Source: a virus
Taxonomy: Duplodnaviria; Caudoviricetes
Length of the DNA: 64,000 nt
Direction: 5' to 3' (one strand)
IMG/VR virus record: IMGVR_UViG_3300006226_001703
Span: 22,583-86,582 of that record
In this document: piece after piece, positions 25,618 through 55,837 of the stretch
Position numbering within the stretch: position 1 is the first letter of the stretch
Layout of the letters: every line of letters begins with the position of its first letter
Program-made: the position numbers and the translations under genes
The notes under the pieces: generated by a model
Database searches by the model: none
What the model saw: only the letters and a program-made list of their open reading frames with translations
What the model was told of the DNA's origin: nothing

Positions 25618-26370
25618 ATGTCTTATAACAGAGGAAGAACAACCTCTCCAATTAGAGGTTTAGTAAATGCAGGTGCTGACTTATTAACGCACATGTATGA
25701 TGTACGTATATTTTTTCCATCAACAAGTGGGCAACCAGAAGAATCATCTTTTAGTGCTTATCCAATAACAGTTAGAGCAGATGGCTTCAAAATTCCTGAC
25801 GTAAAAATTGAAACTTATGAGATCAAGTACCATGGCGTACATATTGATCGACCTAAGGCAACTTTAACAATGGATAGAAAGTTTGATATGCAATTCAGAG
25901 AAGATGCTGCATTTGACTTAAGAAGAAGATTCACAGCTTGGTTAATGGCTATTGTTGATCCAGTAACTGGCGGTGTTTCAAATGCAACCCAGTTCTTTGG
26001 AAGAATAGAAGTAGCAACAATTGCTGGTGCATATTTTGCAACAACAATTAACAGTCCAGTCGGTGACGGCGGAAAAACAGCAAGTAGAGGACCAACTGAC
26101 GTCGAAGATACATTTGGTCATATCACATCTAGAAATGATGTTAACCCATTAGCAATGTGGAAATTCTACAATGTTTGGGTATCAGGTGTTTCTGGTATTG
26201 ATTTCAAAACTGAATCAGGGGACCCAAATAAGTTCACTGTTAACTTTCACTTTATGGATTGTGATTATCCACAATATGGTGGTAACACATTATCACTTAG
26301 CAAATCAACAATCGATGACTGGAAAGAAGTCGTTGGTAGTCCTGGTTGGACATCTGTATTGGATAGATAA
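25618..26370 (+). CDS. Tail tube-like protein (T4 gp19/gp54 fold)
   Basis: ADGFKIPDVKIETYEIKYHG...KFDMQFREDAAF..RRRFTAWL...WKFYNVWVSGVSGIDF..E...KFTVNFHF follows the gp19 pattern. Confidence 0.75.
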   Translation: MSYNRGRTTSPIRGLVNAGADLLTHMYDVRIFFPSTSGQPEESSFSAYPITVRADGFKIPDVKIETYEIKYHGVHIDRPKATLTMDRKFDMQFREDAAFDLRRRFTAWLMAIVDPVTGGVSNATQFFGRIEVATIAGAYFATTINSPVGDGGKTASRGPTDVEDTFGHITSRNDVNPLAMWKFYNVWVSGVSGIDFKTESGDPNKFTVNFHFMDCDYPQYGGNTLSLSKSTIDDWKEVVGSPGWTSVLDR

Positions 26371-26981: not shown

Positions 26982-28121
26982 ATGAAAGAGAAAGCAATTT
27001 TAAATCAAATATATGAAGAAGTGTATGACACTAAAATTCCAGAAAAAGAGAAATTTCTTGAAAATTACGATAGAAATGAAGACCAACTTTCAGAAATGCA
27101 ATGTGCAGGAGATGGTGGACCATCATCAATAACACAATGCGCACCAGAAGGCGGCACTCCAAAAAGATTAGATGAAGCTAATAGAGCTGAATACACTAAA
27201 GATTGGGATGAAGAAAGATTCAATGATGAAATGATGCCAGGTTTTACTGGTTTCTGCCCAGATTGTGGTGATGAAATGTATCATGGAAAATGTGATGCAT
27301 GTGAGTCAATGAATGGTGTTGAGTGTGATAGTTGTGGCGCGTGGATTCATGGTGATGGTGAAATCTGGGGACCAGGTGAAAATGGTGAAGGACCAGCCTA
27401 CTGTGAAGATTGTTGGAAACAACAAGAAGTTTGGAAAGACGCAGGTTTAGATGATGACTCATTAGATGAAATGGGTAACATCGTTGGTAAACCTGACCAC
27501 AAAAGAAGCCCATCAAAAACTGGTAGAAGGTCATTAACTGATTTAACTTTAGACGAAGTTGAAATGTATAATGATGATGAAACGGATTCATTGGATGATT
27601 TAGAAGATGATTATGTTGATGAAGACGATTGGGAAACTCAAGAAATGATGGGCTTTGATCCTGGTGATGAATATTTTGATGTTGATGATGACTGGGATGA
27701 AGAAGATGATGATGACTTATTAGAAGAGCACATTAAACAACGATTAGCCCATCGTAAAACTCAATTAAACAATAAACTAACTGAGGCCGTTAAAGACGGA
27801 ACCTTAGATGAAAAGAATGACTTATATGTTAGGTATCAGTTGCAAGATTGGGACATACCAAACCCAAAAGGTACCCCTGAAGAATATGCCAGTTACAATT
27901 ACCATAGAGAATATCAGAACAAACGAATTAAAGCAAGAGAAAAAAGACATAGACAAGAAAAAGAAGAAAGATTTAGCTCATTTGCCTCACCTCGACATAC
28001 GACAAGTTCTGGTAATCTATTAGATGGACAAAATGACGAATTCTTAGAGCAATGGATGTCAGACAAAAAACAAGCAATGACTTTGAATGAACGCATTGAT
28101 TCGTTTTTGAAGGGAATTTAA
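26982..28121 (+). CDS. Acidic Zn-finger-containing protein, probable internal head protein
   Basis: Four CxxC pairs, long D/E tracts, many LxE sites, QIYE near the N-terminus. Confidence 0.55.
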   Translation: MKEKAILNQIYEEVYDTKIPEKEKFLENYDRNEDQLSEMQCAGDGGPSSITQCAPEGGTPKRLDEANRAEYTKDWDEERFNDEMMPGFTGFCPDCGDEMYHGKCDACESMNGVECDSCGAWIHGDGEIWGPGENGEGPAYCEDCWKQQEVWKDAGLDDDSLDEMGNIVGKPDHKRSPSKTGRRSLTDLTLDEVEMYNDDETDSLDDLEDDYVDEDDWETQEMMGFDPGDEYFDVDDDWDEEDDDDLLEEHIKQRLAHRKTQLNNKLTEAVKDGTLDEKNDLYVRYQLQDWDIPNPKGTPEEYASYNYHREYQNKRIKAREKRHRQEKEERFSSFASPRHTTSSGNLLDGQNDEFLEQWMSDKKQAMTLNERIDSFLKGI

Positions 28122-28834
28122 TGCTCAAGATATTGTGGGAAAAGTTCATTAATTGGATTTTGGGTATTTCCAAAACTCCAGTAGAGGACCCTTATGTGCC
28201 AGAAGTAAAAGAAGAATTACCAGTTACAGAAAATGTTGAAAAACCAACTATGGAGGAAAAAGAAGTGAGTTTACAAATTACTGAGAATTTGTTAGTAAAA
28301 GGATCCACTAACAGACGTGGAGACGCAATGCGTGACTTACGCGGTATTGTGTTACATTGGGTTGGAGCAGTCAATCAGACATCCCTTCAGACCCGCAATT
28401 TTATTGCAAACAGAACCGACTTTGGAAGTTACAATTATCTAATCAATCATGATGGAGAGATTATGAGATTGATTCCAGAAAATGAAGTCGCTTGGCATGT
28501 TGGTACATCTCAACCAGACCCAGTGTCAAAGTTGATTTACACACCACGAGCTAGGGAGATTATTGGTGACCAAGTTGCTAATGCAAAAACAGCAAATTGG
28601 CATACTATTGGAATTGGTATGAACCATAAAACATGGAATGAGTTTACACCTGAAACTTTGAACTCATGTATTTCGCTTTGTGCAGATATATGTAGAAGAA
28701 CAGGTTTAGATCCTTCAAGAATAAGCAACCATTGGGAAATGGTGGGATGGAAAAGGTGCCCAGAATTTTGGGCTAAAGATCCAGCTCAGTTTGAGTTCTT
28801 CAAAGATCAAGTTAGAAAAGCAATAGGAGTATAA
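28121..28834 (+). CDS. N-acetylmuramoyl-L-alanine amidase (Amidase_2), probable endolysin
   Basis: IVLHW, YNYLI, AWHVG, NHW...KRCP give the H-H-C Zn ligands of T7-lysozyme-type amidases. Confidence 0.88.
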   Translation: MLKILWEKFINWILGISKTPVEDPYVPEVKEELPVTENVEKPTMEEKEVSLQITENLLVKGSTNRRGDAMRDLRGIVLHWVGAVNQTSLQTRNFIANRTDFGSYNYLINHDGEIMRLIPENEVAWHVGTSQPDPVSKLIYTPRAREIIGDQVANAKTANWHTIGIGMNHKTWNEFTPETLNSCISLCADICRRTGLDPSRISNHWEMVGWKRCPEFWAKDPAQFEFFKDQVRKAIGV

Positions 28835-28836
28835 AT

Positions 28837-28995
28837 ATGAGTGATGTATATGAAACAGCAACACAATGTGAATGTGAAGGCGAATGTGAAATCAAGTGCA
28901 CAAAAGGTTGCACACCTGAAAAACCAGAAGATGAAGTAAATGTCGACAACGACTTACAGAATGACCCTGCATTAGCTTACGGGGAAGATGCATAG
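28837..28995 (+). CDS. Small Cys/acidic peptide (52 aa, not in ORF track)
   Basis: MSDVYETATQCECEGECEIKCTKGCTPEKPEDE...; TATAAATA immediately upstream. Confidence 0.55.
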   Translation: MSDVYETATQCECEGECEIKCTKGCTPEKPEDEVNVDNDLQNDPALAYGEDA

Positions 28996-29002
28996 GAAAT
29001 AA

Positions 29003-30397
29003 ATGAAGACTTTTCAACAGATTTATGAAAATTCGTTAGTCCCAAATGGCCAGGGTGGAGCATTAAGACCGCAAGGATTAATGATCCACCATTCTGGAGG
29101 AAGAGGAACTGTTCAAGGTGTTATCAACGTTTTGAAACAGAGAGGATTAGCTTATCACTACATAATTGATAGAGAAGGAAAAGTCAACAGAATTGGAGAT
29201 ATAAACAGACAAGCATGGCATGCGGGTGTAGTTGAAAAGCTACCCCGCTTTAATAACCAAACTACTATTGGTATTTCATTAATTGCAAATGATGAAAATG
29301 ATGTTTTACCAGAACAGAGACAAGCTTGTCAACAATTAGCTCAGCAGTTGGGGCAGCAATATGGTTTTGACCCAACTAAAACTACAGTTGGACATGGAGA
29401 AGCAACTTCCAGAAAACAACCAACTGAAGGTGCAACAGCTAAAATGATTAGAGGTGAAGCAACACCTGAAATGCTAAATGCGCAATCAGCTCAAGGACAA
29501 CAAAGTGGAAGAAGTGGTGGAGGTAACATAATTACTAGAGCCATAGACAGAGTAAAAGGTGCATTCAAAAAGAAAAACATACCAGACTTAGTCAAAGATG
29601 TTATTGCTGGCAAATATGGTAATGGAAATCAAAGAAAACAAAAGCTAGACTCAGAATTTGGGCCTGGCACTTATCAAGAGGTACAAGCAGCTGTGAATAA
29701 GGAATTACAAGAGAACTTAAATAGTTTTATAGAGTATTCTAATAACTATAAACAAGTAACAGAACAAATGAGAGAAGAGCAACAAAATGCTCGTTTCGTT
29801 AAACATATTAGAGAAGGTAAATGGACCCCAACTGAAAAATTTACAGAAGCTTATGTTGAGTTAATTCCCCATATTAGTAAAGATGAATGGCCACTATTAA
29901 GAGAAACTCTAATGTTGCTTGCTTATCAAGAATCAAGAATCTTTAACCCATCATTTGCCTTAAGAGAAAATAAGTCAAACTTATTAGAAGACTATTTCTT
30001 AACAGCTGCATTTTCTAATCCATTAATTGAAAAGTTCTCATTAGATGAACGATTTGATGACACTAGAGAAAAACTTAATGAATTTCTTGGTGGATTAGTT
30101 GGTGGACTTGCCAAAAAAGCAGGTGGTGCTCTTTTGGGCAAAGTTGCTGGAGGCGGAGGAGGTGGTGGTCTTCTCGGTGGACTTAAATCAAAAATCGGCG
30201 GTCTCCTTGGAGGAGGAGGCGGACAAGGCGGGGGAGGTCTTGGCGGAATTATTAAGAATATGCTTGCAGGCGGGAAAATTGACAAAGGTCAAATTACTAA
30301 TATTGCCAAAGGTGTCTCAAAACAATTAGGAGACGGTATTAAACAGAATGTATTGCAAACGTTAGTTCAATCATTCGCAGGTGGTGGAGCAGCATAA
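29003..30397 (+). CDS. Putative head-packaged protein P1: amidase-like + Cpl-7 repeat + shared domain + Gly zipper
   Basis: MKTFQQIYE N-terminus; IHHS/YHYII/AWHAG; VIAGKYGNG..RK repeat; GKWTP...WPLLRET...RIFNPSF domain; poly-Gly tail. Confidence 0.7.
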   Translation: MKTFQQIYENSLVPNGQGGALRPQGLMIHHSGGRGTVQGVINVLKQRGLAYHYIIDREGKVNRIGDINRQAWHAGVVEKLPRFNNQTTIGISLIANDENDVLPEQRQACQQLAQQLGQQYGFDPTKTTVGHGEATSRKQPTEGATAKMIRGEATPEMLNAQSAQGQQSGRSGGGNIITRAIDRVKGAFKKKNIPDLVKDVIAGKYGNGNQRKQKLDSEFGPGTYQEVQAAVNKELQENLNSFIEYSNNYKQVTEQMREEQQNARFVKHIREGKWTPTEKFTEAYVELIPHISKDEWPLLRETLMLLAYQESRIFNPSFALRENKSNLLEDYFLTAAFSNPLIEKFSLDERFDDTREKLNEFLGGLVGGLAKKAGGALLGKVAGGGGGGGLLGGLKSKIGGLLGGGGGQGGGGLGGIIKNMLAGGKIDKGQITNIAKGVSKQLGDGIKQNVLQTLVQSFAGGGAA

Positions 30398-31326
30398 TGG
30401 AATTGGATTCCTTCATTGAATATGCAGATAATTACTCATCAATAAAAGAGCGAAATAAAAGATTTCGTTTTTTTGAATCAGTTCAAAAAGGTGAATGGAT
30501 TCCAGAAGAAAAAATATCAGAAGCATACATACCATTGGCTAAATATATGCTTCCAGATGAGTGGCCAATTTTAAGAGAAACTATCATTGAGTTGGAAAAA
30601 ATGGAGGAAAGAATCTTCAATCCAACTTTTAATGTATTAAAAGAGAATAAAATAATTGAAAGTTACTATTTAACTTCAATTTTTAAGAATAGACATATAA
30701 GAGAAAGTGCAGATGATCGTTATAGTGAAAGATCATTTGAACTTGACCAAATGAGAGAAGAACAGTTAGAAGAATTCCTCAAAAAAGCATTTAACAAAGT
30801 TAAGGGTGCAATTGGCGGATTAGCTGGTGCAGCAGGTAGTATGGGCGGAGCCAAAATTGGCGGTATGTTAGGCGGCGCCATTGGCAGTATCATACCTGGA
30901 GCAGGAACTGCTATTGGTGCCGGATTAGGTTCAGCATTAGGCGGTGCCATCGGTGGTAAAATTGGAAATAAAGCCGGTAGTGCTATTGGTGGAGATAAGA
31001 AAACTTCTGGCATATTTGGTAAGATTGGAAATGTAGCAAGTATGGCAGTGGGTGGAGGCGGAGCCGCTGGTGGTGGAATTGGAAAGGCTTTAGGATCCGT
31101 TTTTGGCGGAGGACAAAGTGGTGGAATGGTTGGAACATTCATGGGCGTAGCTGATAAGCTTGCTCAAGGAAATATTCAACCAAATCAAATTTTACAGCAG
31201 TTTGGCGGCAACGCTGGAAATGCTATAACTCAACTTGGTAGTCAATTAGGTGTTAACTTAAATGATATGGTTCAGAATGCAATAAATCAAGGAGTTACAC
31301 AAGCAATGCATGGATCGGCGGCATAA
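30397..31326 (+). CDS. Putative head-packaged protein P2: shared domain + glycine zipper
   Basis: GEWIP...WPILRET...RIFNPTF; GGMLGGAIGSIIPGAGTAIGAGLGSALGGAIGG. Confidence 0.7.
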   Translation: MELDSFIEYADNYSSIKERNKRFRFFESVQKGEWIPEEKISEAYIPLAKYMLPDEWPILRETIIELEKMEERIFNPTFNVLKENKIIESYYLTSIFKNRHIRESADDRYSERSFELDQMREEQLEEFLKKAFNKVKGAIGGLAGAAGSMGGAKIGGMLGGAIGSIIPGAGTAIGAGLGSALGGAIGGKIGNKAGSAIGGDKKTSGIFGKIGNVASMAVGGGGAAGGGIGKALGSVFGGGQSGGMVGTFMGVADKLAQGNIQPNQILQQFGGNAGNAITQLGSQLGVNLNDMVQNAINQGVTQAMHGSAA

Positions 31327-31541
31327 TGGCAGACTTAAAAGCAGCATGTGCTGCAGTAGTAGAATATTTTGATGAAATGTTAAATAAAACTTATTCAGGT
31401 CCTGCAACAGCAATGTTACAGGCTGAATTAAATAATCCGCAAACTAGTGAAATGACTAAGAATGCGATAGATATAGTAGAAGACACTTTAAAAGACGAAA
31501 TGGTAGATGACGTTGTAGGTGTACCAGAGGAGCAACAATAA
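31326..31541 (+). CDS. Small hypothetical protein within the array
   Basis: 71 aa, coupled to neighbours by TAATG overlaps. Confidence 0.55.
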   Translation: MADLKAACAAVVEYFDEMLNKTYSGPATAMLQAELNNPQTSEMTKNAIDIVEDTLKDEMVDDVVGVPEEQQ

Positions 31542-33289
31542 TGAATGATTTTGAAAAAATATTTAATGAAAGTAACAAAGAGTTTGTAAAAACTTATTCA
31601 CAAATATATGAACACATAAGAGAAGAGCAAGAAGCTTTAAGTGAAAATCAAATAATTATTGAAGCTGCAGCTGGTGGCTATTGGATTCCTGAGTTTAAAT
31701 TATCAGAATTCTATAAAGAAACAATGCACACTTTTCATGATAATGATTGGTCTATTTTAAGAGAAGCTATCCCAGAAATGGAAAGATTAGAACAAAAAAT
31801 ATTCCATAAATCATTTGAACATAAGAGTGATAATTATAAAAATAAATTATTAGAAAGTTATGCTAGAACTTCTTTATTTACTAACACACAACAATTAAGA
31901 GAAAGTAATAGCACATATAAAAATAGATTAGATAATAATAGAAAACGCTTAATTGAAAACACATCTTTTATTGTATTAAGAGAAGATGAAAGATTCAAAG
32001 ATCGTTTAGCTCAATTTTTAATAGACCATATTGAAGCAGGTAATCTTGATGTTGATACTGCTAAAACAGTACAGTCACTATATATGACAAATCCACAACA
32101 AGCTGCTGCACAATATAGTAATATTATAACAGCATTTAAAAATGGTTTAGCTCCAACTGAACAAGCAACTTTTGAAGCAACACTAGGCGGCCCCGCAAGA
32201 GATCAACATGAGGGTGGTTTAAGAAGATTTGGTGGTGGATTAGCAAAATTAGCAAGCGGTGTTTTAGGTGCTGTAATGATGATTCCACAAGCATTAAAAT
32301 TTACAGCAATTTTTACTCCAATTTGTGTTTTCGCTGGGCCGGCAGCTCCTGTAGTTGCATTTATTTTAGCTATTATTACTGTAATGTTATTAAATGCAGT
32401 TGCAAAATATGCAGCAGAAAAATTAACGGCATGGCTTGTACCAAAAATTATGGCTGCATGTAAAAAAGCCCCATTTAAGTTTATTAGAAATATTGCAAAT
32501 AATGCCCCTAATGCATTAGAAAGATTTTTAACTATAGTTATTTCAGCTTTAGTAACAATAGTTGTAATGATAGCAGGGGGGAAAATGGTAGCAGGTGGGG
32601 CTGGTAGATTAGCAGCTGGAATAGATGCAGCTAAAAGTTCAGGTGGTGGAATTGTTAATCAAGGAAGATCATTTACACAGGGATTATTTAGTAGAGATGC
32701 TGGAAGAACTGGAAGAGATATCTTTAAAACAGCAATGAAACCTGGTGAAGTTTCTATTAATCCAAATACAGGAAATCCGCTATCACTTACAGATCTTCCA
32801 GGTGTAAGTAGGTTAACCAATATTCCAGGAGCAAATAATGTAATTGGTGGATTAAATCAAATGGCAACAGCAGGCGGACGTTCATTGGCTGCCGGCATGG
32901 GTGCAGCAAATGGAATGAGTAATCTTGCAACCCAAGATATGAATTATCGTCCAAATGATAATCCAATGATGAATAGATATTATAGTCAATTACAAAACTC
33001 TTCATTATATGATTTCAGTGATATTTATATGAGATCAAAATTAAATGAAGGAGAAAAATTAGATGAAGGTCTAATTCAAAAAATTAAACAAATAGTTGAA
33101 GCTTTAAAAGCTAAAATTGGAGAAATAAAACAAGCTTGGCAACAATTACTAGCAGCAGCTAAGGGTGAATCACCTGAAGCAGCAGCTGAAGTAGAGAACT
33201 CTGGTGCTGATGAACAAAGCTCATCTGAAACAAATGAATCAGCAACATCAGAACAATCAGAGGAAAATGAAACTGAGGAACTAACATGA
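31541..33289 (+). CDS. Putative head-packaged protein P3: shared domain + TM helices
   Basis: MNDFEKIFNE..KTYSQIYE; GYWIP...WSILRE...KIF; hydrophobic AAPVVAFILAIITVMLL and FLTIVISALVTIVVMIAGG. Confidence 0.7.
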   Translation: MNDFEKIFNESNKEFVKTYSQIYEHIREEQEALSENQIIIEAAAGGYWIPEFKLSEFYKETMHTFHDNDWSILREAIPEMERLEQKIFHKSFEHKSDNYKNKLLESYARTSLFTNTQQLRESNSTYKNRLDNNRKRLIENTSFIVLREDERFKDRLAQFLIDHIEAGNLDVDTAKTVQSLYMTNPQQAAAQYSNIITAFKNGLAPTEQATFEATLGGPARDQHEGGLRRFGGGLAKLASGVLGAVMMIPQALKFTAIFTPICVFAGPAAPVVAFILAIITVMLLNAVAKYAAEKLTAWLVPKIMAACKKAPFKFIRNIANNAPNALERFLTIVISALVTIVVMIAGGKMVAGGAGRLAAGIDAAKSSGGGIVNQGRSFTQGLFSRDAGRTGRDIFKTAMKPGEVSINPNTGNPLSLTDLPGVSRLTNIPGANNVIGGLNQMATAGGRSLAAGMGAANGMSNLATQDMNYRPNDNPMMNRYYSQLQNSSLYDFSDIYMRSKLNEGEKLDEGLIQKIKQIVEALKAKIGEIKQAWQQLLAAAKGESPEAAAEVENSGADEQSSSETNESATSEQSEENETEELT

Positions 33290-34968
33290 AATTAGAAGAA
33301 AAAGTAAATGACATAATATCATTTGTAAACAATTATGTGCCTCTTAAAGAGAGAGAATTACAAGAAAGAAGTGACAGACTTTTTAACAGAAAATTAAGAG
33401 AAGGAAGATGGATTCCAAAAGAAAAATTATCCGTTATTTTTAAGTCAAGAATGCCAAAAACAGATGATAACTTTTTCAATTTAGTTTTAGAAGAAAGCTT
33501 AGATACTTTAATTAGATTAGAAGAAAAGATATTTAGTCCTGCTTTTTATAAAAATAAAAATAAAATACAACTATTAGAAACTTATTATAAAACGGCTATT
33601 TTAGAAAATGAAGATATAATTTTCCCATTAGCAGCATTAAGAGAAGCTGATCAACAGCAACAACCAATGGGAAGACATCAACAAAGAGGCATGCAAAGAG
33701 ATATGCGTGCACAACAACGACAACAGAACCGTCAAAATGCTTGGAATAAAGTTAAAAACTTTGGTAAGGGAATTATTGGTGGAATAAAAGGAGCTGTTCA
33801 AGGAGCTAGACAAGGTTTTCAACAACAACAGCAACCTCAGAATGACGGAAATCAACAACAAGATGACCAACAGAATCAAGACCAACAACAGCAGGACCAA
33901 AGTCAAGATCAAAATCAAGACCAACAGCAAGATCAGCAACAACCTCAAATGAGTAGAGAAGAAGCAATTCAAGCCGTTATTGATGGTAAGTTTGGAAATG
34001 GAGCTGCTAGACAGCAAGCATTACAAGATGCTGGCTTTGACCCAAAAGATATTCAACAAGGTGTTAACCAACAATTACAGGGACAGAATAACAATCAACA
34101 GCAACAACAAACTCAACAGCAACCACAAGAACAGAATAATAATCAACAAGCGCCTGAACAAAATAATCAGCAGCAACAAAATCAAGATAGTGGAAATAAT
34201 CAACAATCTAATAATGACCAACAGCAACAAGATCAGGGAAATAACAACCAACAACAATCAAATGATGATGGCGGAGATAATCAACAACAATCTGATGGTA
34301 ATAATGAACAACAGTCAAATGACCAACAACAACAAGATTCAGGCGGGAATGACCAGCAGCAACAAGATGACCAGTCAGGTGGTGACCAACAACAAGATAA
34401 TGGTGGACAACAAAACCAGGGAAATGACCAACAATCTCAAGATGGCGAAGAATTACAAGGAGAAGAACCGCAAGATACAACAGGTCAAAATAATGATGAA
34501 GATTTGAATGCTATTACTCCAGAAGGTTCACCCCCAGCTCCACAAAATGAACAAGCACCACCACCCCAACAACAGGGTAATGTAGTTGCAACATTAAAAG
34601 ATTCTGGAAGAGAAGTAACCGATAGAACACCTGTTGGTATGGCAATGCAAGCAGGTAAGAGTGGTATTTATCCTCCAGGCGGAAATAATATGATTGTTTT
34701 AGATGATGATTCATATGATGGTTTTTATACAGCAGCCAGATATAATATAAGTGAATTTAAAGATTATCAAATGGTAGATAAAAATCAAAATCCAATACAA
34801 AATAGTAATAATTATTTTGTAAGAGCTCCTCATATAATTGATGAACAAATAAATAAATATCGTTTTACAGCAATGAATGGTGGAGCAGGTAATAGAAAAA
34901 TTATAGTTGATATAGATACTGGTGGTGGAAATAATAGTTCTTCTAATAATAATAGAAATAGAAGATAA
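33286..34968 (+). CDS. Putative head-packaged protein P4: shared domain + Gln/Asn-rich region + Cpl-7 repeat
   Basis: GRWIP...EEKIFSPAF...LLETYYKT; AVIDGKFGNGAARQQAL; ~250-aa Q/N/D tract. Confidence 0.7.
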   Translation: MKLEEKVNDIISFVNNYVPLKERELQERSDRLFNRKLREGRWIPKEKLSVIFKSRMPKTDDNFFNLVLEESLDTLIRLEEKIFSPAFYKNKNKIQLLETYYKTAILENEDIIFPLAALREADQQQQPMGRHQQRGMQRDMRAQQRQQNRQNAWNKVKNFGKGIIGGIKGAVQGARQGFQQQQQPQNDGNQQQDDQQNQDQQQQDQSQDQNQDQQQDQQQPQMSREEAIQAVIDGKFGNGAARQQALQDAGFDPKDIQQGVNQQLQGQNNNQQQQQTQQQPQEQNNNQQAPEQNNQQQQNQDSGNNQQSNNDQQQQDQGNNNQQQSNDDGGDNQQQSDGNNEQQSNDQQQQDSGGNDQQQQDDQSGGDQQQDNGGQQNQGNDQQSQDGEELQGEEPQDTTGQNNDEDLNAITPEGSPPAPQNEQAPPPQQQGNVVATLKDSGREVTDRTPVGMAMQAGKSGIYPPGGNNMIVLDDDSYDGFYTAARYNISEFKDYQMVDKNQNPIQNSNNYFVRAPHIIDEQINKYRFTAMNGGAGNRKIIVDIDTGGGNNSSSNNNRNRR

Positions 34969-34976
34969 ACTAAATA
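34969..34976 (+). promoter_or_regulatory. Class III late-type motif ACTAAATA
   Basis: Between P4 and P5, followed by SD gagg. Confidence 0.5.
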
Positions 34977-34993
34977 TAAAGAGGAAATAATAG

Positions 34994-37015
34994 ATGAATT
35001 TTGAAAAATTGTACCGACAATCTAATCCAAAAGATGCTAAATTAGCGGCTATAAGAGAAGCTAATAATGAAGTTAAGGAAAGATTACAAGAATATGAAAA
35101 TAAAAATTTCTTAAAAGAATTAAGAAATGGTAGATGGTTTCCTCACTGTAGATTTTCAGAAGCTTATCTTGGTTTAATTCCTTTTACTAATAAAAAAGAC
35201 TGGCCAACTTTAAGAGAAACTATAATTAGATTAGAAAAAATAGAAGAAAAGATATTTAATCCAACTTTTAAAAGAAAAAATTTTAGAAGTAAAATTATCT
35301 TATTAGAACAATATTATAAAACTGGCACATTTGAAAGAATGAATACTATTAGAGAATCATTTAATAATGATAATTTAATAAAGAGAAGATTACAATTAAA
35401 TGAACAAGCTAAAATTATTAAAGAAAACTTTGAAGAATTAAATGAAGCCTTTTTCTTACCAGCATTAGGTTTAGGAGCCGGCGCACTTTGGGCTGGAAAT
35501 AAAATCAGAAATTGGTGGCAAAATAGAAGAAATAGAAATCAACCTCAGAACCAACAATCTCCAGCTGATGCAGCATTTAATCCACAAGGAAATGCAACAC
35601 CTCAAGAAGAGGCAGCAGCAGCAGCGGGAGCACCACCTGATCAAGCACAAGCAGCAGCAGTAGCAGCACAAACATCAACTGGTAATCAAGTTGAAAATAC
35701 AATGGCAGCTCAAGCAGCAGCACAACCTGGTGACTATATGATTAGATCAGATGGTACTAGAGTTGTTCTAAATCAGGGCGATATAACTTGGGCACAACAG
35801 AGAATCCAACAAGGTGCAAGTAGTGGTGGAGGAAGCTCTGGTGGTTCATCACAACAAGTACAACAACAGATAACTAGACTAGAAGCAAGAGCTGAAGAAG
35901 CAAGGGAAAGTGATAGCCCACGAGCTGAAGCAGAAGTTGAGAAGATAGAAAACGAAATTGAAGAGTTACAGGATGAAGCTGAAGAAGGTGGTGAAGCAAG
36001 CCCAGGAGAAGCAGCAGCAATAAGTGAAATGCCACCTGAACAAGTAGCAGCTGAAGATCCACAAGCACCAGAACCACAAGTAGCACCTCCAGCCGGAGCT
36101 GAACAACAAGGTCATGCTTATCAGATTCCAGCAGGCCCTTATGCTGGAACAACAGTTTACATTCCATATCGACAACCATTAAGCAACACAGGTACACCAG
36201 CATTTAAAGATGCAACTATGCAAGAACAAATTGGACACATAATGAAAACTGGTAACCAAATTACATTCTCGCCAACTCAAGGCGCAATGGCAGATCTTCA
36301 TGGACAGCAAGCGATGTCTCAAGCAACTCAACAAGCTGAAGCTCAAAGAGATCAAGCAATGTTAGATGCTTTCAAACAATCACCAAATTACACACAACTT
36401 GTTAGAATGTTTGGTGATGAACAAGCTGCATTACAACAATGGTTACAAACTCCGGAAGGACAGCAAGTTGCACAACAGGCAGAAGCTCAAGCTGAACAAT
36501 CAGTAGCAGCGGCACAACAAACGGTTCAAAGAGATACAAACAACTTTAATGCAGCTCAAGCAATTACAACTCAACAAGTTAACATTGGTGGTGTAAATGT
36601 TCCTGTAACTCCAATTCCAGGAGCAAGTGGTCAACAGGGAACTTTTGGTCAAGACTCTGGTGTAATTGGTCAAACACCTTCAGGAATCCCATTCTTTATG
36701 GTTCCAGAGCAACATAATATTCCACCTGAGCCAGCAGGCATTCAGGACTTACAAAGAGCAAAACAGAATGGTATGGTAAATGATGAAATGTTAAGAAGAT
36801 GGACTGCACAAGGTTCACAAGCTGTTCAATCAATAATTATTAAGACAATACAAAATGGACAGAATTTTAGACAAGAACAAATGACTGACCCACAAATTAG
36901 AAACTTTATAAATCAATTACACCCACAAGCTAGAATAACATCTGACAGACAATTAAGAAATTGGACAGGTTTAACTGACCAAGAATTTGCATCAAAATTA
37001 GGTAGTAGATATTAA
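34994..37015 (+). CDS. Putative head-packaged protein P5: shared domain + Ala/Gln/Pro-rich payload
   Basis: MNFEKLY; GRWFP...DWPTLRET...KIFNPTF...LLEQYYKT; LNE-AFFLPALG junction. Confidence 0.7.
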   Translation: MNFEKLYRQSNPKDAKLAAIREANNEVKERLQEYENKNFLKELRNGRWFPHCRFSEAYLGLIPFTNKKDWPTLRETIIRLEKIEEKIFNPTFKRKNFRSKIILLEQYYKTGTFERMNTIRESFNNDNLIKRRLQLNEQAKIIKENFEELNEAFFLPALGLGAGALWAGNKIRNWWQNRRNRNQPQNQQSPADAAFNPQGNATPQEEAAAAAGAPPDQAQAAAVAAQTSTGNQVENTMAAQAAAQPGDYMIRSDGTRVVLNQGDITWAQQRIQQGASSGGGSSGGSSQQVQQQITRLEARAEEARESDSPRAEAEVEKIENEIEELQDEAEEGGEASPGEAAAISEMPPEQVAAEDPQAPEPQVAPPAGAEQQGHAYQIPAGPYAGTTVYIPYRQPLSNTGTPAFKDATMQEQIGHIMKTGNQITFSPTQGAMADLHGQQAMSQATQQAEAQRDQAMLDAFKQSPNYTQLVRMFGDEQAALQQWLQTPEGQQVAQQAEAQAEQSVAAAQQTVQRDTNNFNAAQAITTQQVNIGGVNVPVTPIPGASGQQGTFGQDSGVIGQTPSGIPFFMVPEQHNIPPEPAGIQDLQRAKQNGMVNDEMLRRWTAQGSQAVQSIIIKTIQNGQNFRQEQMTDPQIRNFINQLHPQARITSDRQLRNWTGLTDQEFASKLGSRY

Positions 37016-37027
37016 GAGGAGAAATAA

Positions 37028-37753
37028 ATGAAATCATTTGAGCATATATTTGTAAAAGCAAATTATCCACAACACTTACAGGAGTATATCCAGCTTTTTG
37101 AAGCTGACCAAGCATATGCTAATTATCAACAAGCAAATCAGCCAAATGATTTATATGCTAGATCACAAAACTTAGCACAACAGGGCGCACAGAACTTTAC
37201 ACAAGGTCAAGGAATTGGCGGTGTAATGCAAGGTGCTGGACAAATGATGTTGGGTAATGCTGGAAAGAAACTTGGTTTTTTAAGTAGATTAGGAAAAGGA
37301 CTTGCGGGGTTAACACCCATTGGTGCCTTAATGAATCAGAAAAAAGCTAAACAAGAAAAAGAAGCTGCATTCAAAGCTGGTTATGAGCAGGGTCAAACTG
37401 ATGCTGCACAGGGACAGAATAATGCAGATCAGGCTGCTGCACAAGCTGGTGGTGAACAAGCTGCACAAGGCGAAAAAACAGATGCTGATTATCAGCAAGC
37501 TGCAAGAGATGTTTGGGCTGGCAGATATGGTAATGGCCAAGAGAGAGTTCAAGCTCTTCAAGCTGCTGGGTTTGACCCACAAAGAGTACAACAATTAGTA
37601 CAACAAAGTCAAGGTGGCGGTGGAAACAGCGGTGGCGGTAATAGTGGAGGCGGACAACAACAGCAAGCTGCTCCAGCACAACCTGAACAAACACAAGAAC
37701 CAGAACCAGTTCAAGAATCTTTTATGAGGATCTATCGAGCTTCAAGGAGATAA
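37028..37753 (+). CDS. Putative head-packaged protein P6: Gly/Gln-rich with Cpl-7 repeat
   Basis: MKSFEHIF; ARDVWAGRYGNGQERVQALQAAGFD. Confidence 0.65.
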   Translation: MKSFEHIFVKANYPQHLQEYIQLFEADQAYANYQQANQPNDLYARSQNLAQQGAQNFTQGQGIGGVMQGAGQMMLGNAGKKLGFLSRLGKGLAGLTPIGALMNQKKAKQEKEAAFKAGYEQGQTDAAQGQNNADQAAAQAGGEQAAQGEKTDADYQQAARDVWAGRYGNGQERVQALQAAGFDPQRVQQLVQQSQGGGGNSGGGNSGGGQQQQAAPAQPEQTQEPEPVQESFMRIYRASRR

Positions 37754-37755
37754 CT

Positions 37756-38487
37756 TTGAAGACATTTGCACAAATTCATGAAGACTGTCAACAACCACAA
37801 ATAAAAAGCTTCTCACAAATTCATGAAAGTTGTCGTATCAAATCTTTCGAAGAAATCTATCAACTAAATGAAGCAGCATCTCTTGAAAGTATCAGCGCAA
37901 TTAGCGACGCAATCTCAAATGGTCGAGCTTCAATGGCCAACAGTATCACAAATGCAACATCTGGCAAAGGACAAGCTGCTTCCAACATTGGTCAAATAGC
38001 AGCAGGCGCAGTTACTGGTGGTAGAGCCGGGGCTTTAGGAGCTGCTGCTGGCATCGCACAAAACGCTCTTAGCAATGTACAAACTTCATCAACATTTGGG
38101 GCAACAGCCAAAGGCGCATTGAGTGGTGCTTTAGATGGTTTTGCTTCTGGTGCAGGAAAAGGTGGAGGAATCGGTGGAGCAATTGGTGCTGTAGTTGGTG
38201 GTATTCAAGGAGCCATAGCCGCATTCCAAGATGCAAAAGCAGATGCGAAGGCAGCAGCAGAACAGGAAGACGCAGAAGATGCTGAAGCCGAAGATGCAGA
38301 CGCAGAAGCTGATGCTGAAAGTGATGCCGACTCTGATGCAGATGCTGGAGACAGTGATGCTGGAAGTGATAGCGATAGCGGTGGAGATTCTGGCGGAGAT
38401 AGTGGAGGCAGTGATTCAGGTGGCGGTGGAGACTCTGGAGGAGGCGACTCAGGCGGGGGCGGCGATTCCGGTGGAGGAGGAGAGTAG
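37756..38487 (+). CDS. Putative head-packaged protein P7: triple targeting-like motif, Gly zipper, D/S/G tail
   Basis: TTG start; KTFAQIHE, KSFSQIHE, KSFEEIYQLNE; GGIGGAIGAVVGG; acidic DSGG repeats. Confidence 0.65.
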   Translation: MKTFAQIHEDCQQPQIKSFSQIHESCRIKSFEEIYQLNEAASLESISAISDAISNGRASMANSITNATSGKGQAASNIGQIAAGAVTGGRAGALGAAAGIAQNALSNVQTSSTFGATAKGALSGALDGFASGAGKGGGIGGAIGAVVGGIQGAIAAFQDAKADAKAAAEQEDAEDAEAEDADAEADAESDADSDADAGDSDAGSDSDSGGDSGGDSGGSDSGGGGDSGGGDSGGGGDSGGGGE

Positions 38488-39036
38488 ATTCACAGGTGTC
38501 TTTTTCCAATTGACGCCTTCGAGATTTCTTTCCATTGCTTTTAATAAGTCAGGTGTATGAAGTTCCGTTACGACAGTGTTAACTATTAAGCGATCTTTTG
38601 GGACTATTCCAATTGATTCTAACGTTCTATTATCAACCGTATGTCCATCAGTCATAACTTTGTCAAGTTTATAGTCAATATGAAATGAATCAACATAATC
38701 TAAAAGCTTTTCTATTTTGTTGGGTAAGCAACCAGTCGTATAAATTGTCGTTTTTAATCCACAACTTTTTGCTGTTGAAAATATCATTTTAAGTTCATCA
38801 ATATCTTTGAACAGAGGTTCTCCACCCGATACAGTTAGCCAGTCAATATTTTTTGGATTTATTGCATAGATTCTCGTAACGATATCATCAACAGTTAAGT
38901 CCTCTTCTTCTGGCTCGAAAGTTTTGAGACTTGGGTTGTGGCAATAGAAACATGAAAAGTAACACCCCTTTGCAAATGCAACTGCTGCAATTCCATTGGG
39001 GCTATCAACTAGCGAAAATGGTATCCATCGGTACAC
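38449..39036 (-). CDS. nrdG: Anaerobic ribonucleotide reductase activating enzyme (radical SAM)
   Basis: SLVDSPN...GCYFSCFYCHNP (CxxxCxxC), TVSGGEPL. Confidence 0.85.
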   Translation of the reverse strand: MYRWIPFSLVDSPNGIAAVAFAKGCYFSCFYCHNPSLKTFEPEEEDLTVDDIVTRIYAINPKNIDWLTVSGGEPLFKDIDELKMIFSTAKSCGLKTTIYTTGCLPNKIEKLLDYVDSFHIDYKLDKVMTDGHTVDNRTLESIGIVPKDRLIVNTVVTELHTPDLLKAMERNLEGVNWKKTPVNLLSSSTGIAAPA

Positions 39037-42370: not shown

Positions 42371-42777
42371 TTACCAAATTCTTCCTGGATGTTTCTAATT
42401 CTATCTGAAGAATTCATACCTTCAAAATCAAATATTTCGTGGATTCGCTCATGCGTTCGATAATTACATAGTAATATGTAGCAAGATTCATAGGAGTCTA
42501 GTATCGACTGTTCTGAGTTTTTTTCCCACTGCCATCTTTCAAAAATTTCGCCAATTTCATAAATATGATGTTCAGTTAAATTTGTGCTTCTCTTTTCTTT
42601 TTCTAAAACTAAAAAACCGCGACTCTTTGCTAATCTTCTAGTTACATCTCGTAGTTTATTCTTGATTAGACTGTGAGGGGTTCCACCTGCAACATGTCTT
42701 TCATAACAGTTGCAGATGTGGTTCCGATAATCCTCATAGTTCATGAGGGATAAGTTCTCCAATAGTTGGGTGGGCAA
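42349..42777 (-). CDS. HNH-like nuclease
   Basis: NLTEHHIY...YILLCNYRTHERIH. Confidence 0.5.
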   Translation of the reverse strand: MPTQLLENLSLMNYEDYRNHICNCYERHVAGGTPHSLIKNKLRDVTRRLAKSRGFLVLEKEKRSTNLTEHHIYEIGEIFERWQWEKNSEQSILDSYESCYILLCNYRTHERIHEIFDFEGMNSSDRIRNIQEEFGNIVLYDK

Positions 42778-44390
42778 TTTTCCACTTGTTTTTCAACTAC
42801 TGTCATTTGAGCTTTGGAAAATATCCTTTCAATTGGCAAGTCAATTTCGTCACAGTAGGACTTGATGATTTTGAAGTCCACATAGTTGGCGAGGCTTGTA
42901 CCAAGTGAAATATCCTTTGTCAGTTTTTTCTTGTCAAGAGCAAGTTCAACCTTCTCGATATTTGCTTTGGCTTTTTCCATTTGAGTTACTAACTTTGCTT
43001 TTGCTGTTTTGATTTCGTCCAGTTTCTCTTTGAGAAGTTTAGGTGTACCAGCATACAAAGTTTTGAACTTATTTGCTTTTTCATCAAGTTTGGTAACCTT
43101 TCCAGCATGAGCGGCTTTAATAGTTTTCACCCGCTCTTTTGCTCTCTTCACTCTCTCAGCAATTTTCTGCTCGCCTTCCTTCTGGTTTTTGCCAACATTT
43201 TTCTGATGATTCAAAGTTTTTGCAATTTCCAAATTGGCTTCAAATATTGCTCTAAGTTTTTCAGCATCAGTATTTGCCTTAGTAACTTTTTTAGTTTTCA
43301 GGCTGTTGACGAGCACCTCGTTACAAACGACAGTGCGGAGGTTCTTAACGGTCGCTCCTGGCTGGATTCTCTTGAGGTAACTATTTACATTGACATTGGG
43401 GCGGAAGATCCGCTCACCAGCCTTGAGTGCCTTGAGACGCTTTGATAGGAAGGCATGGACAGTAGGCTGAACGGAAATAATCCGCTGGTCAGGTACTGAA
43501 TCCTTTCCAAGAAAATCAAACTGAATCTCGTTATTTGGTAGAACACTGAGATGCTGAAACTCTAAAGTCTGCATCCCATAAGTTAGGGCTTGCTTGTTTT
43601 CGTCTCTCTCATTACCGATACGAATGCCAGTCTGCATAATCAAGTAAATGATAATTGCTTCATCAGTACCAGCAGCGCATCCCTTGTCAATGGCTGTGTT
43701 TATGTTTGCCCAATTTTTGAGAATATCAGAAGTTTTGTCAAACTTGCCAGTTATGTTTTCCTGTCTCAGTGAAACTTTGCCATGGAAAGTAACTGTCTTA
43801 TTCAGAGCGGGAAAACCCATTTCCGGCCTTCCACATTTGATTTTGTAACTGTAAACCCAAATGGCTTTGTTGTCAGTGTTGTAGACGATATCGCCGGGCT
43901 GGACACGATATTTCCAAGAGAATTTTCTGGGGTCCTTTCCGCGAGTCATAATCCAGTTAGGGGCTTCAACCATGTAAGTAACGAGCGGCTGGCGAACTCC
44001 ATCGAGAAGCGCATATCCGAACTTCTCTTTGAGTCCTTCCTTCAACTCTTTTACACGGACTTTGTCGATTTTTGAGGATTCTTTCGTAATCTGCTTAATT
44101 GCCTCTGCTGCCCTCTTCATGTTTTCCATGAGTGGAATGAAGTCATTGGGGAACGACAGTTTCTGCTGATTGACTGTGAGTTCCGGTTTTAGACATTTCC
44201 ACATATTCTTGTTTGAAGAGTGAAAGGCTTCTTTTTCGTAATCGCTGCCCAAGAAACGAGCCGCCATCCAAAGCATCTCTTCTGCGAGAGGAGGGAGCTT
44301 TTCGCCAGCAAGATCGTACCCCTTAGTTCGGTACTCTTCTGGAAATAGCGGTCCATCATATTGTAGCGTTTTGAAACGTTCTGTTTTCAT
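42741..44390 (-). CDS. top1: DNA topoisomerase IB, eukaryote-type (core I-III, coiled-coil linker, C-terminal Tyr domain)
   Basis: LQYDGPLF, GIRIGNE, FDFLGKDS, KNLRT, LNHQK, linker, ISLGTSLANYVD..PIERIFSK; the R-K-R-H-Y pentad is present. Confidence 0.93.
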   Translation of the reverse strand: MKTERFKTLQYDGPLFPEEYRTKGYDLAGEKLPPLAEEMLWMAARFLGSDYEKEAFHSSNKNMWKCLKPELTVNQQKLSFPNDFIPLMENMKRAAEAIKQITKESSKIDKVRVKELKEGLKEKFGYALLDGVRQPLVTYMVEAPNWIMTRGKDPRKFSWKYRVQPGDIVYNTDNKAIWVYSYKIKCGRPEMGFPALNKTVTFHGKVSLRQENITGKFDKTSDILKNWANINTAIDKGCAAGTDEAIIIYLIMQTGIRIGNERDENKQALTYGMQTLEFQHLSVLPNNEIQFDFLGKDSVPDQRIISVQPTVHAFLSKRLKALKAGERIFRPNVNVNSYLKRIQPGATVKNLRTVVCNEVLVNSLKTKKVTKANTDAEKLRAIFEANLEIAKTLNHQKNVGKNQKEGEQKIAERVKRAKERVKTIKAAHAGKVTKLDEKANKFKTLYAGTPKLLKEKLDEIKTAKAKLVTQMEKAKANIEKVELALDKKKLTKDISLGTSLANYVDFKIIKSYCDEIDLPIERIFSKAQMTVVEKQVENCPPNYWRTYPS

Positions 44391-46931: not shown

Positions 46932-46935
46932 AAGG

Positions 46936-46943
46936 ACTAAATA
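46936..46943 (+). promoter_or_regulatory. Class III late-type motif ACTAAATA, 3 nt before ATG
   Basis: actaaata-aat-ATG. Confidence 0.6.
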
Positions 46944-46946
46944 AAT

Positions 46947-52313: not shown

Positions 52314-52792
52314 TGAACTTAGATTTTTGGAAAAAAACTGGCACAATTAAACCCTTCACACTAGAGGAGTGGGACCAATTCACAGAAGACATAGTTAAGC
52401 TGCCAAAGTTAGATTCATTTATCAATACACCAATGAGAAAATCAAAAGTCAAAAAGGGAGTTAACGTTCAATCTGAAAAGTTTGATAGTTTTACTGAGTT
52501 CGCATTCGTACAATATCAACGCCTAATTCAATTTGCTATTGTTGAACGAAACGTTAAGTCGTTATTCTTTCACTACACTGATACTAATGGAAAGATGTGT
52601 AAGTTTTTTCCAGATTTTCTTGTCAATGGAGTCCCAGTCGAGATAAAAGGCCGACTATCTGAAAAGGATAGATGCAAGTTAGAACAATGTACTAATGTCG
52701 TATGGTATTTTCAAGCTGATGTGAATAGAATGATGGGAGAATTGGATGCTAAAATCCCAAATTGGCGGTCTGACTTTTTGCAAACAAATTAG
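52313..52792 (+). CDS. PD-(D/E)XK endonuclease, TnsA-N-like (free-standing homing-type)
   Basis: FHYTDTNG...FFPDFLVNGVPVEIKG. Confidence 0.7.
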   Translation: MNLDFWKKTGTIKPFTLEEWDQFTEDIVKLPKLDSFINTPMRKSKVKKGVNVQSEKFDSFTEFAFVQYQRLIQFAIVERNVKSLFFHYTDTNGKMCKFFPDFLVNGVPVEIKGRLSEKDRCKLEQCTNVVWYFQADVNRMMGELDAKIPNWRSDFLQTN

Positions 52793-52983
52793 AAGAATCT
52801 TCTCATATTGTGTTTTTCATATAATCTCATAGCGTCTATATACTTATTGATAGCATCAGTTATTTCAAAAAATTGCTCATTAGTGCTAACGGCTTCTTGA
52901 ATTAGTTTAAGATAATTATCTCTTAATCCATTAACTTCAAGCAATCTTTCATCTAATAATTCATAATCAACTCCCATTAACAT
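52789..52983 (-). CDS. Hypothetical protein
   Basis: Small helical ORF ending the minus-strand operon. Confidence 0.5.
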   Translation of the reverse strand: MLMGVDYELLDERLLEVNGLRDNYLKLIQEAVSTNEQFFEITDAINKYIDAMRLYEKHNMRRFF

Positions 52984-54567: not shown

Positions 54568-54591
54568 ATTTACCTCTCGATTATTTTTATT

Positions 54592-54601
54592 TATATTAAC
54601 T
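54592..54601 (-). promoter_or_regulatory. Class II motif AGTTAATATA upstream of dnaX
   Basis: Recurrent motif. Confidence 0.55.
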
Positions 54602-55288: not shown

Positions 55289-55837
55289 TTATATTAACTG
55301 ACTAAACTTTGATTCATAACCAGTAATAAATGCATCTATTAGTTCTTTGTGAATTCTTCTTAATTTTCTATTTTTCTTAACATATTTGATGTTATTATAC
55401 ATTCTAGAAACTTGGTCTACTTTTGGTTTATCTAACAAGTTATACAAACAGTCACCAAGTTTCACAGTTAAAGCATCATCTGATAGTCTAACCATTTTTC
55501 TGGACATGTAATTTTCTTTGTCTTCTTTTTTGATATTTGGAAGGTTAGTCAATTCATCAACTAAAATGGCGACTTCTTCATCAAACATGTCTTCGAGATT
55601 AGCAAATGAAACTTTACAATCCTCTAAAGTGTCATGCAACTCTGCAGCACAGAGAATGTTTTCATCTTTGATTCCATAGCCTTCTAATGTGTCAGCAATT
55701 CCTTGTGGATGAACCCAATATCTATCACCAGAACCTTTACGAACTTGTCCTTCATTATCATGGGCGATGCGAGCATATTCTCTTGCTAATGCTTGTTTAC
55801 GAGAGACTATTTCATAAAGTTGTTGGAACGTTTTCAT
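55289..55837 (-). CDS. Small alarmone hydrolase-like HD protein (RelA/SpoT HD, Mesh1-like) with capsid-targeting-like N-terminus
   Basis: AH..GQVRKGSGDRYWVHP, AAELHDTLED, F..EVA.LVDELT, VKLGDCLYN; starts MKTFQQLYE. Confidence 0.88.
   Translation of the reverse strand: MKTFQQLYEIVSRKQALAREYARIAHDNEGQVRKGSGDRYWVHPQGIADTLEGYGIKDENILCAAELHDTLEDCKVSFANLEDMFDEEVAILVDELTNLPNIKKEDKENYMSRKMVRLSDDALTVKLGDCLYNLLDKPKVDQVSRMYNNIKYVKKNRKLRRIHKELIDAFITGYESKFSQLI

Follow-up and report, generated by a model that had tools for sequence, protein, structure and literature searches.

Five proteins sharing a predicted six-helix domain in a run of putative internal head proteins of an uncultured phage of roughly 330 kb

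We analyzed a 64,000-nucleotide stretch of DNA from an uncultured tailed phage (hereafter the window; bases 22583-86582 of the 86.6-kb IMG/VR contig IMGVR_UViG_3300006226_001703, CheckV completeness 26%). Its central feature is a run of eleven open reading frames (ORFs) on the plus strand at positions 26982-38487, whose starts and stops overlap or nearly touch and which is preceded by a hairpin terminator that itself lies 3' of a tail-tube-like gene (Table 1). Five genes of the run, P1 to P5 at 29003-37015, encode proteins with a domain of about 105-125 amino acids (aa) in common. The contig is a piece of a roughly 330-kb phage genome. Among its genes are T4-like ones for replication and accessory functions (DnaB-like and Dda-like helicases, clamp loader, rIIA, RNA ligase and GroEL). 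An earlier note on this DNA had proposed that the shared domain is a carrier that loads diverse cargo proteins into the phage head, where a protease would release them for ejection.

The ORFs, coordinates and motif ranges given in that note were borne out. The five copies of its shared motif are real as well: they start with G-x-W-x-P at nucleotides 29816 (P1), 30490 (P2), 31676 (P3), 33403 (P4) and 35129 (P5), each inside the range given for it. Two copies depart in part from the consensus it proposed: P4 has F in place of W and LEE in place of LRE, and P3 has K in place of P. An alignment of the copies spans about 110-125 residues and has 14 invariant columns, with 30-44% identity to P1; a local search with a hidden Markov model of the family scores them at expectation values (E) of 2e-30 to 5e-40. 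The wider profile search that the earlier note had suggested, made against 1.84 billion cluster representatives, found only 21 proteins, 16 of them from elsewhere; thus the similarity among the copies reflects homology and not chance. The structure prediction suggested in the same place gave a confident AlphaFold2 model of P2 residues 1-135 (22-sequence alignment; predicted local distance difference test score, pLDDT, 88.8; predicted template modelling score 0.75) with six helices. Pfam and PHROG scans gave no match on the shared domain of P1-P5, and comparison of the model with PDB and BFVD by Foldseek gave nothing below E 1. The best hit of an exhaustive wide VIA-align search (Cdc37 middle domain, Z 6.2) is below the meaningful level for helical bundles, and the ESM Atlas gave no usable match for the domain or for a 1788-aa neighbor described below. 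The earlier note had named a match to a characterized non-virion family as an outcome that would speak against its proposal, and across Pfam, PHROG, PDB, BFVD and VIA-align the domain matches none. Absence of a fold match in PDB, BFVD and VIA-align does not prove the modelled fold to be new; whichever of the readings weighed below holds, the domain defines a protein family not described before, for which the predicted structure is confident and no fold match was found.

The outside members of the family are long proteins, all from uncultured phages of about 330 kb, and the relatives range from 329 to 1155 aa. Searches of GenBank phages by tblastn with P2, P3 and the related protein P0007 found no relative, the first domain alignment and the P0012-14 subgroup found nothing when used to scan IMG/VR, and no Pfam domain was found in 17 homologues of P1-P5. 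Three related loci were recovered, one of them in a genome rated 100% complete, IMGVR_UViG_3300010167_000010 (hereafter G001; 329,018 bp with terminal repeats). G001 is collinear with the contig, with 70 of 107 genes in common at a mean identity of 48%. The order tail-tube-like gene, small acidic ORFs, P0a-like gene, amidase gene and domain proteins is common to all three phages, and in all three the domain proteins are followed on the opposite strand by genes for an NrdG-like activase, rIIA and topoisomerase IB. There are five domain genes in the phage studied here, two in G001 and one in the third phage, so the five copies reflect a local expansion. The domain is N-terminal in nearly all family members, and most of them have a single architecture, in which the domain is followed by a charged linker, a conserved Gly/Pro-rich hydrophobic hairpin and an Ala-rich tail with a conserved motif of about 50 residues. 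The earlier idea of a carrier for diverse cargoes therefore does not describe the family as a whole: five copies with differing tails are seen only in this phage, and the variety of tails is part of its expansion.

A weakly supported tree places P3 with the long, hairpin-bearing form of the family, of which it is the orthologue (it groups with P0007 and P0006 of G001), and P1, P2, P4 and P5 with a short G001 paralogue. P5 gives two separate matches to P0007, one in the domain (42% identity) and one in the conserved tail motif (52% identity, E 5e-12); this motif lies at residues 223-270 of P5 (nucleotides 35660-35803) and is C-terminal in the long family form. Since its domain groups with the short form while its tail motif is that of the long form, P5 looks, from these alignments, like a recombinant in which a domain of one kind was joined to a piece of the other kind's tail. 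The third phage also encodes a 212-aa protein (L005:9361-9999, plus strand) with an N-terminal tag of the type described next, the first helix of the domain only, and a glycine-zipper tail; this helix may be a separate module.

The capsid-targeting sequence of T4 is MKTYQEFIAE, which the gp21 protease cuts once (PMC8442874). P1, P3, P5, P6, P7 and the product of an HD hydrolase gene elsewhere in the window begin with M-K/N-(T)-F-x-x-I/L-Y/F/H, often followed by E, and IYE, IHE and LNE are found after these tags. Judged by resemblance to the T4 sequence, the N-termini that the earlier note had quoted hold for P1, P3, P5, P6 and P7; P2 and P4 are untagged, their domain standing at the very N-terminus. 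The likeness to T4 that it had pointed out proved to be a recurrent signal in this phage lineage, mainly at N-termini, where the motif is 4-5-fold enriched: the core motif falls within the first 9 residues of 6 ORFs in the contig (1.3 expected) and of 14 in G001 (3.2 expected). G001 has six instances of a longer form of the tag that ends in L-x-E, and P7 has one; the tag is kept in 9 of the 21 members of the domain family, even at about 30% identity. In G001, tagged genes also flank on both sides a probable portal gene, itself a weak call (Portal_T4 E 5e-5, phrog_213 E 5e-4). The tag of the HD hydrolase equals that of P1 in eight of nine residues and is its only link to the array. The G001 orthologue of this gene (42% identity) has a different N-terminus without a tag, so the tag was either gained in the present lineage or lost in that of G001. 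Elsewhere in G001, five consecutive genes (214812-219028, minus strand), none with a Pfam domain, each begin with a tag; by analogy, this row recalls the variable internal-protein locus of T-even phages.

The T4 protease gp21 has its cleavage site after L/I-X-E and breaks core proteins into several pieces (PMC9026906). This motif, [LI]xE, is enriched in the shared domain relative to composition-matched shuffles, with 40 occurrences against 13.6 expected in this phage (2.9-fold, z 8.6) and 129 against 47.8 in the outside homologues (2.7-fold, z 13.6), z-scores that overstate the evidence, as the sequences share ancestry. Seven control patterns, in which L/I still precedes the acid but the spacing or residue class differs, all gave ratios near 1. 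Reversing the order gave a slight excess for E-x-[LI] and E-x-x-[LI] (1.3-1.4-fold; z 3.3 and 2.3 among the outside homologues) and a deficit for E-[LI]. The phiKZ-type motif [AGS]xE is depleted in the domain, with ratios of 0.10 in this phage and 0.58 in the homologues. As the earlier note had observed, [LI]xE sites flank the domain in all five proteins, and the 120-151-aa domain regions of P1-P5 (tag included where present) contain 8-12 such sites each. Three aligned positions retain the motif (ending at E61, E88 and E103 in P2), in 20, 21 and 22 of the 22 sequences, respectively. The position kept throughout sits in the predicted loop that ends the domain (residues 95-106), and the other two fall within predicted helices 4 and 5. 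When the 97 genes of the contig are ranked by [LI]xE excess, P4, P3, P0a, P2, P1 and P5 are all within the top 12, and the top ranks in G001 are held by a tagged 451-aa repeat protein, P0022 (see below), the probable portal and the domain protein P0007.

Upstream of the window lies a gene (L001:9299-10573, minus strand) for a 424-aa protein with a tag-like N-terminus and repeats of about 30 residues that each end in L-[RK]-E; its [LI]xE excess ranks second in the contig, and the product of the next gene (L001:8741-9298, minus strand; 185 aa) is likewise enriched. Their G001 orthologues lie at 318877-320232 and 320244-320828. Neither protein matches a family, and both are candidates for scaffold or core proteins.

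A candidate for the corresponding protease was found in G001 by ranking its genes on [LI]xE excess and then modelling the candidate, P0022. The AlphaFold2 model of its residues 60-260 has a pLDDT of 77.6, and its top PDB match by Foldseek is T4 gp21 (5JBL; E 8e-5, probability 1.00, 23% identity; 144 columns, root-mean-square deviation 3.3 Å), with herpesvirus proteases ranking next. His122, Ser178/180 and Glu200 are invariant across 23 homologues of P0022, in a spacing that presumably resembles that of the catalytic residues of the T4 enzyme. The C-terminal 450 or so residues are a coiled coil, which holds most of the 28 [LI]xE sites of the whole protein (12.5 expected), and there is a nearly invariant L-x-E-A near the C-terminus. 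The model suggests that P0022 is a fusion of protease and scaffold. More than 100 proteins, on contigs as long as 389 kb, belong to its family; one of them is named 'Prohead core protein serine protease' in nr. The Pfam families Peptidase_S77, Gp23 and Phage_sheath_1 had no match in G001, PHROG and Pfam scans of 20 G001 head-region or tagged candidates were nearly empty, and phmmer searches of PDB with P0022 and the 424-aa repeat protein returned nothing.

Outside the shared domain the proteins of the run differ (Table 1), largely as the earlier note had described. Amidase_2 (PF01510) scores 84.5 bits in P0b and 68.2 bits in P1 (cut-off 26), CW_7 (PF08230) scores 40 bits in P1, 46 in P4 and 39.9 in P6 (cut-off 25), P3 has three hydrophobic helices at residues 254-342 (nucleotides 32300-32566), and P4 is Q/N-rich; the glycine zipper it had listed is visible, yet it falls below the Pfam cut-off (E 0.02). 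P1 matches Amidase_2 at E 1e-18, CW_7 at E 3e-10 and the shared domain at E 5e-38 (nucleotides 29714-30031), and P4, which has the top [LI]xE z-score of the contig, matches CW_7 at E 4e-12 and the domain at E 2e-30. The closest solved relatives of the P1 amidase module are AmpDh2 and AmpDh3. The third zinc ligand (Asp or Cys) lies beyond the end of the printed alignment, at a site that we take from T7 lysozyme and AmpD; there P0b reads K-R-C-P, and P1 reads R-K-Q-P after the second His (window 29393-29420, residues ~131-140). From these residues, the P1 module may bind peptidoglycan without cutting it. P0b also matches the endolysin family phrog_9611 (E 2e-27) and has orthologues in all three phages. 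The N-terminus of P0a contains IYE, and the protein has 11 [LI]xE sites against 4.5 expected; its acidic 73-aa module recurs in a tagged 379-aa protein of G001 (172903-174042; 47% identity, E 1e-10) whose gene adjoins that of the probable portal. In P7, three tandem tags (residues 1-39), each ending in [LI]xE, are followed by a Gly/Ala-rich region and an acidic tail of Asp, Ser and Gly. No signal peptide or N-terminal membrane anchor was found in the proteins of the run, and no internal-protein family of Pfam or PHROG matched any of ten of them, which includes homology to IPI, IPII, IPIII and Alt.

Table 1. Genes of the run, the tail-tube-like gene before it, the tagged HD hydrolase gene and the G001 protease candidate (window positions unless another genome is named)
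Feature	Position	Strand	Description	Basis
Tail-tube-like gene	25618..26370	+	250 aa; followed by hairpin terminator	phrog_45 tail tube E 4e-14
P0a	26982..28121	+	First gene of run; 379 aa, very acidic; weak Zn-ribbon	Pfam scan
P0b	28121..28834	+	Amidase_2 peptidoglycan amidase; amphipathic N-terminal helix; acidic linker	Pfam E 1e-23
Small ORF	28837..28995	+	52 aa, acidic, Cys-rich	ORF list
P1	29003..30397	+	464 aa; tag (residues 1-9), Amidase_2 (22-138), CW_7 (195-234), shared domain (238-343), Gly-zipper tail (361-464)	
P2	30397..31326	+	309 aa; no tag; shared domain (residues 1-103, nucleotides 30397-30705), linker helix, Gly-zipper tail	Domain E 5e-34
Small ORF	31326..31541	+	71 aa, acidic; between P2 and P3	No Pfam or PHROG family
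P3	31541..33289	+	582 aa; tag, second tag-like copy, shared domain to residue 121, hydrophobic helices, acidic tail	Domain E 5e-40
P4	33286..34968	+	560 aa; no tag; shared domain (residues 1-120), CW_7 (residues 228-264, nucleotides 33967-34077), long Q/N/D-rich tracts	
P5	34994..37015	+	673 aa; tag, shared domain to residue 121, Q/A-rich tail	
P6	37028..37753	+	241 aa; tag, Gly/Q-rich region, CW_7 (residues 157-193); no shared domain	CW_7 E 4e-10
P7	37756..38487	+	243 aa; TTG start with good ribosome-binding site upstream	
HD_4 gene	55289..55837	-	Alarmone-hydrolase-type; tag	Pfam HD_4 E 9e-14, profile from residue 18
P0022	G001 52741-54912 (L008:14741-16912)	-	723 aa; gp21-like domain and coiled coil	Modelled fold

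The reading that we favor, to which we give about an even chance, is that the run at 26982-38487 encodes internal head proteins (prohead-core and ejection proteins) of a phage of about 330 kb, which are loaded by tag or domain and processed at [LI]xE by a gp21-type protease. In this scheme, whose docking, cutting, domain removal, ejection and tail roles we infer, the proteins would be made in the cytoplasm, since none has a signal peptide, and would dock on the scaffolding core of the assembling head by the tag, the six-helix domain or both. A gp21-type protease would then cut after [LI]xE, removing the tag and cutting the domain at its three conserved sites or at least separating it at its end loop. 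The tails (an amidase-like and CW_7 module, glycine-zipper peptides, a hydrophobic-hairpin protein and Q/N-rich CW_7 proteins) would remain in the head, exit with the DNA at infection and act on the peptidoglycan and the cytoplasmic membrane. Indirect support for head loading comes from the recurrent tag, from the [LI]xE enrichment and conserved sites of the domain, and from the gp21-like modelled fold of the protease candidate in the relative G001. The cargoes fit such a scheme, in that three CW_7 proteins and an amidase-like module without an export signal stand in the same run as hairpin and glycine-zipper tails. That the domain is removed after loading is, taken overall, rather doubtful. 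Equally tentative, and on balance more probably wrong than right, is a broader proposal that the six-helix domain is a capsid-loading signal of a second, larger class. As a folded adaptor, it would attach whatever protein it is fused to onto a giant phage's scaffolding core and be cut at its three [LI]xE sites to release the cargo in the head, with duplication and recombination giving rise to a five-member injected set. The trans-envelope conduit suggested in the earlier note is speculation from domain content.

In its working, such a system would resemble both the T4 internal proteins and the ejection proteins of SPN3US and phiKZ, by analogy, and it is homologous to neither. With T4 IPI, IPII, IPIII and Alt the run has in common clustered genes, a short N-terminal tag of similar composition that ends in I/L-x-E on otherwise unrelated proteins, a protease in the lineage with a gp21-like modelled fold, and a cargo that presumably travels with the DNA (PMC8442874, PMC3012670, PMC9026906). 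It differs in that there is no sequence homology to the T4 internal proteins, a folded helical domain of about 105 aa stands after or in place of the 10-residue tag, the protease carries a coiled coil of about 450 aa, and the cargoes, which in T4 are small basic anti-restriction proteins, are predicted to bind the wall or insert into membranes. In SPN3US, the paralogous ejection proteins gp53 and gp54 have N-terminal propeptides of 125-137 aa that are cut at several sites (PMC10052503). These family A proteins and the inner-body proteins of phiKZ and 201phi2-1 are adjacent head paralogues of giant phages whose N-terminal propeptides of 111-254 aa are fragmented at several redundant protease sites (PMC10052503, PMC9026906), and here, too, adjacent paralogues have a long N-terminal region that holds several protease motifs. 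Their motif is A/S-x-E, whereas the domain described here is poor in [AGS]xE and rich in [LI]xE; searches detected no likeness to them in sequence or fold, and the present lineage is a different one (T4-like replication genes, rIIA, GroEL). MuF polymorphic toxins and polyvalent proteins likewise combine an N-terminal virion-associated domain with interchangeable C-terminal effectors (PMC5576092, PMC5512222). They differ from the present case, where neither MuF nor another Pfam domain is found on the shared domain, the tails are not recognizable toxins, and the variety of tails is confined to one phage rather than family-wide. Tape-measure proteins and tail-associated lysins share with the run a position after the tail-tube gene, hydrophobic and Gly-rich segments, hydrolase modules and weak PHROG matches; many paralogues of very variable length, T4-like tags and clustered protease motifs, with matches in low-complexity parts only, set it apart from tape-measure proteins. 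The novelty of the present system lies in the folded domain that the five proteins share, its five-fold expansion in this phage and the fusion of protease to coiled coil.

Several observations weigh against head loading and processing, besides the inflated z-scores and the weak portal call already mentioned. P2, P4 and 12 of the 21 family members have no tag (some of the latter are truncated gene calls), [LI]xE is mildly enriched genome-wide (1.2-1.3-fold), and the tails are not depleted in it beyond the level predicted from composition. The fold match of P0022 is moderate (TM 0.50/0.59), and a fold is silent on cleavage specificity; moreover, the gene for this type of protease was seen in the relative G001 and not on the 86.6-kb fragment, which is 26% complete. 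A conserved domain that is modelled with such confidence could equally be a permanent structural module. Finally, the array follows the only detectable tail-tube-like gene, and its weak PHROG matches on Gly-rich parts are to tape-measure and tail-lysin families.

The last two points lead to the serious rival, which we nevertheless consider unlikely: that the array encodes a tape-measure-like set lying in or under the tail tube and leaving the virion first, with the domain as an anchor to tube, baseplate or chaperone and with no proteolysis in the head. All three related phages have the tail-tube-like gene ahead of the array (in G001 it gives the one match to Phage_T4_gp19 of the whole genome, at a weak E of 0.02), the small acidic ORFs in between could encode chaperones, and no other tape-measure gene was identified in G001. 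A hydrophobic segment, a Gly-rich stretch and a wall hydrolase are a common tape-measure make-up, and the tail of P1 matches the tape-measure family phrog_794 (1e-4) and P2 the tail-associated lysin family phrog_1047 (4e-4). These matches are, however, confined to low-complexity Gly-rich stretches, and five paralogues, with relatives of 329 to 1155 aa, fit a length ruler poorly. A tail location would also leave unexplained both the T4-like tag, which occurs on small unrelated proteins and on portal-adjoining genes, and the specific [LI]xE enrichment that the array has in common with the portal and the protease-coiled-coil protein. Position itself is ambiguous, because in T4 portal and prohead-core genes come after the tube gene. 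Within the head, it is improbable that the domain is kept, the paralogues co-assembling through it into a permanent body or core stack with only tags or linker cut. A high-confidence fold conserved over about 105 residues exceeds what a signal needs, the untagged P2, P4 and P0007 could enter by co-assembly with tagged paralogues, and internal bodies built of paralogues are known in phiKZ-like phages (PMC9026906); yet the two conserved [LI]xE sites inside helices 4 and 5, together with the 2.8-fold excess, resemble the redundant sites of propeptides (PMC9026906, PMC10052503), and most relatives have one or two copies, a poor fit to a hetero-oligomer of many paralogues.

Two further alternatives are each less likely than a tail-lumen role. 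A non-virion role, as a late cassette for lysis or envelope remodelling that acts from inside the cell with the tag serving regulation or turnover, seems to us slightly more improbable still than a retained domain. In its favor, P0b, an amidase conserved in all three phages, has endolysin-family matches, G001 encodes a single-pass membrane protein of 96 aa just upstream of its amidase, CW_7 is typical of endolysins according to its Pfam description, and hydrophobic hairpins and glycine zippers occur in holin-like proteins. At least seven large proteins, three of them with CW_7, far exceed what such a cassette needs, however; they have no signal peptide or N-terminal membrane anchor, the tag is also found on the HD hydrolase and portal-adjoining genes, and the [LI]xE pattern would be left unexplained. 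It is very unlikely indeed that the tag is no capsid address and instead a recognition leader for a modifying enzyme such as the product of the radical-SAM gene that abuts the array in all three phages, since this gene is on the opposite strand, in the rIIA block, and the tagged genes of G001 are scattered far from it.

If head loading and processing is correct, the 'tag, load, cut, inject' scheme of T4 reaches a distant clade of uncultured phages of about 330 kb, and a folded modular leader, recognized from sequence, could serve to predict which proteins a phage injects. Leaders of this kind would be practical handles for packing foreign proteins into phage heads, and the cargo set (wall binders, a hydrophobic hairpin and glycine zippers) bears on how giant contractile phages move DNA across the envelope. 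If instead the proteins occupy the tail lumen, the family is an unusual multi-copy relative of tape-measure proteins.

The radical-SAM neighbor of the array (38449-39036, minus strand) was rejected as a tag-modifying enzyme: it looks like an NrdG-type activase, its best matches being models of the activase of anaerobic ribonucleotide reductase (NrdG2, E 6e-21 and 7e-22, neither reaching the cut-off), and no SPASM-type extension was found in it. At the start of the window, a coiled-coil-rich ORF of about 1600 aa (1-4101, plus strand) is preceded by a tail-fibre-like gene (L002:1541-2902). Neither has a G001 counterpart, and the pair looks like an insertion particular to this phage, since the syntenic place in G001 holds only about 640 bp. 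Two very large ORFs of 820 and 1788 aa (44469-52313, plus strand) are without a Pfam, PHROG or Atlas match; they are kept in G001 as 751 and 2239 aa, and their products may be structural proteins. Between these and the array lies a gene (42741-44390, minus strand) for a full-length eukaryote-type topoisomerase IB, with Topoisom_I_N, Topoisom_I and Topo_C_assoc all above cut-off, which is kept in G001 and in the third phage.

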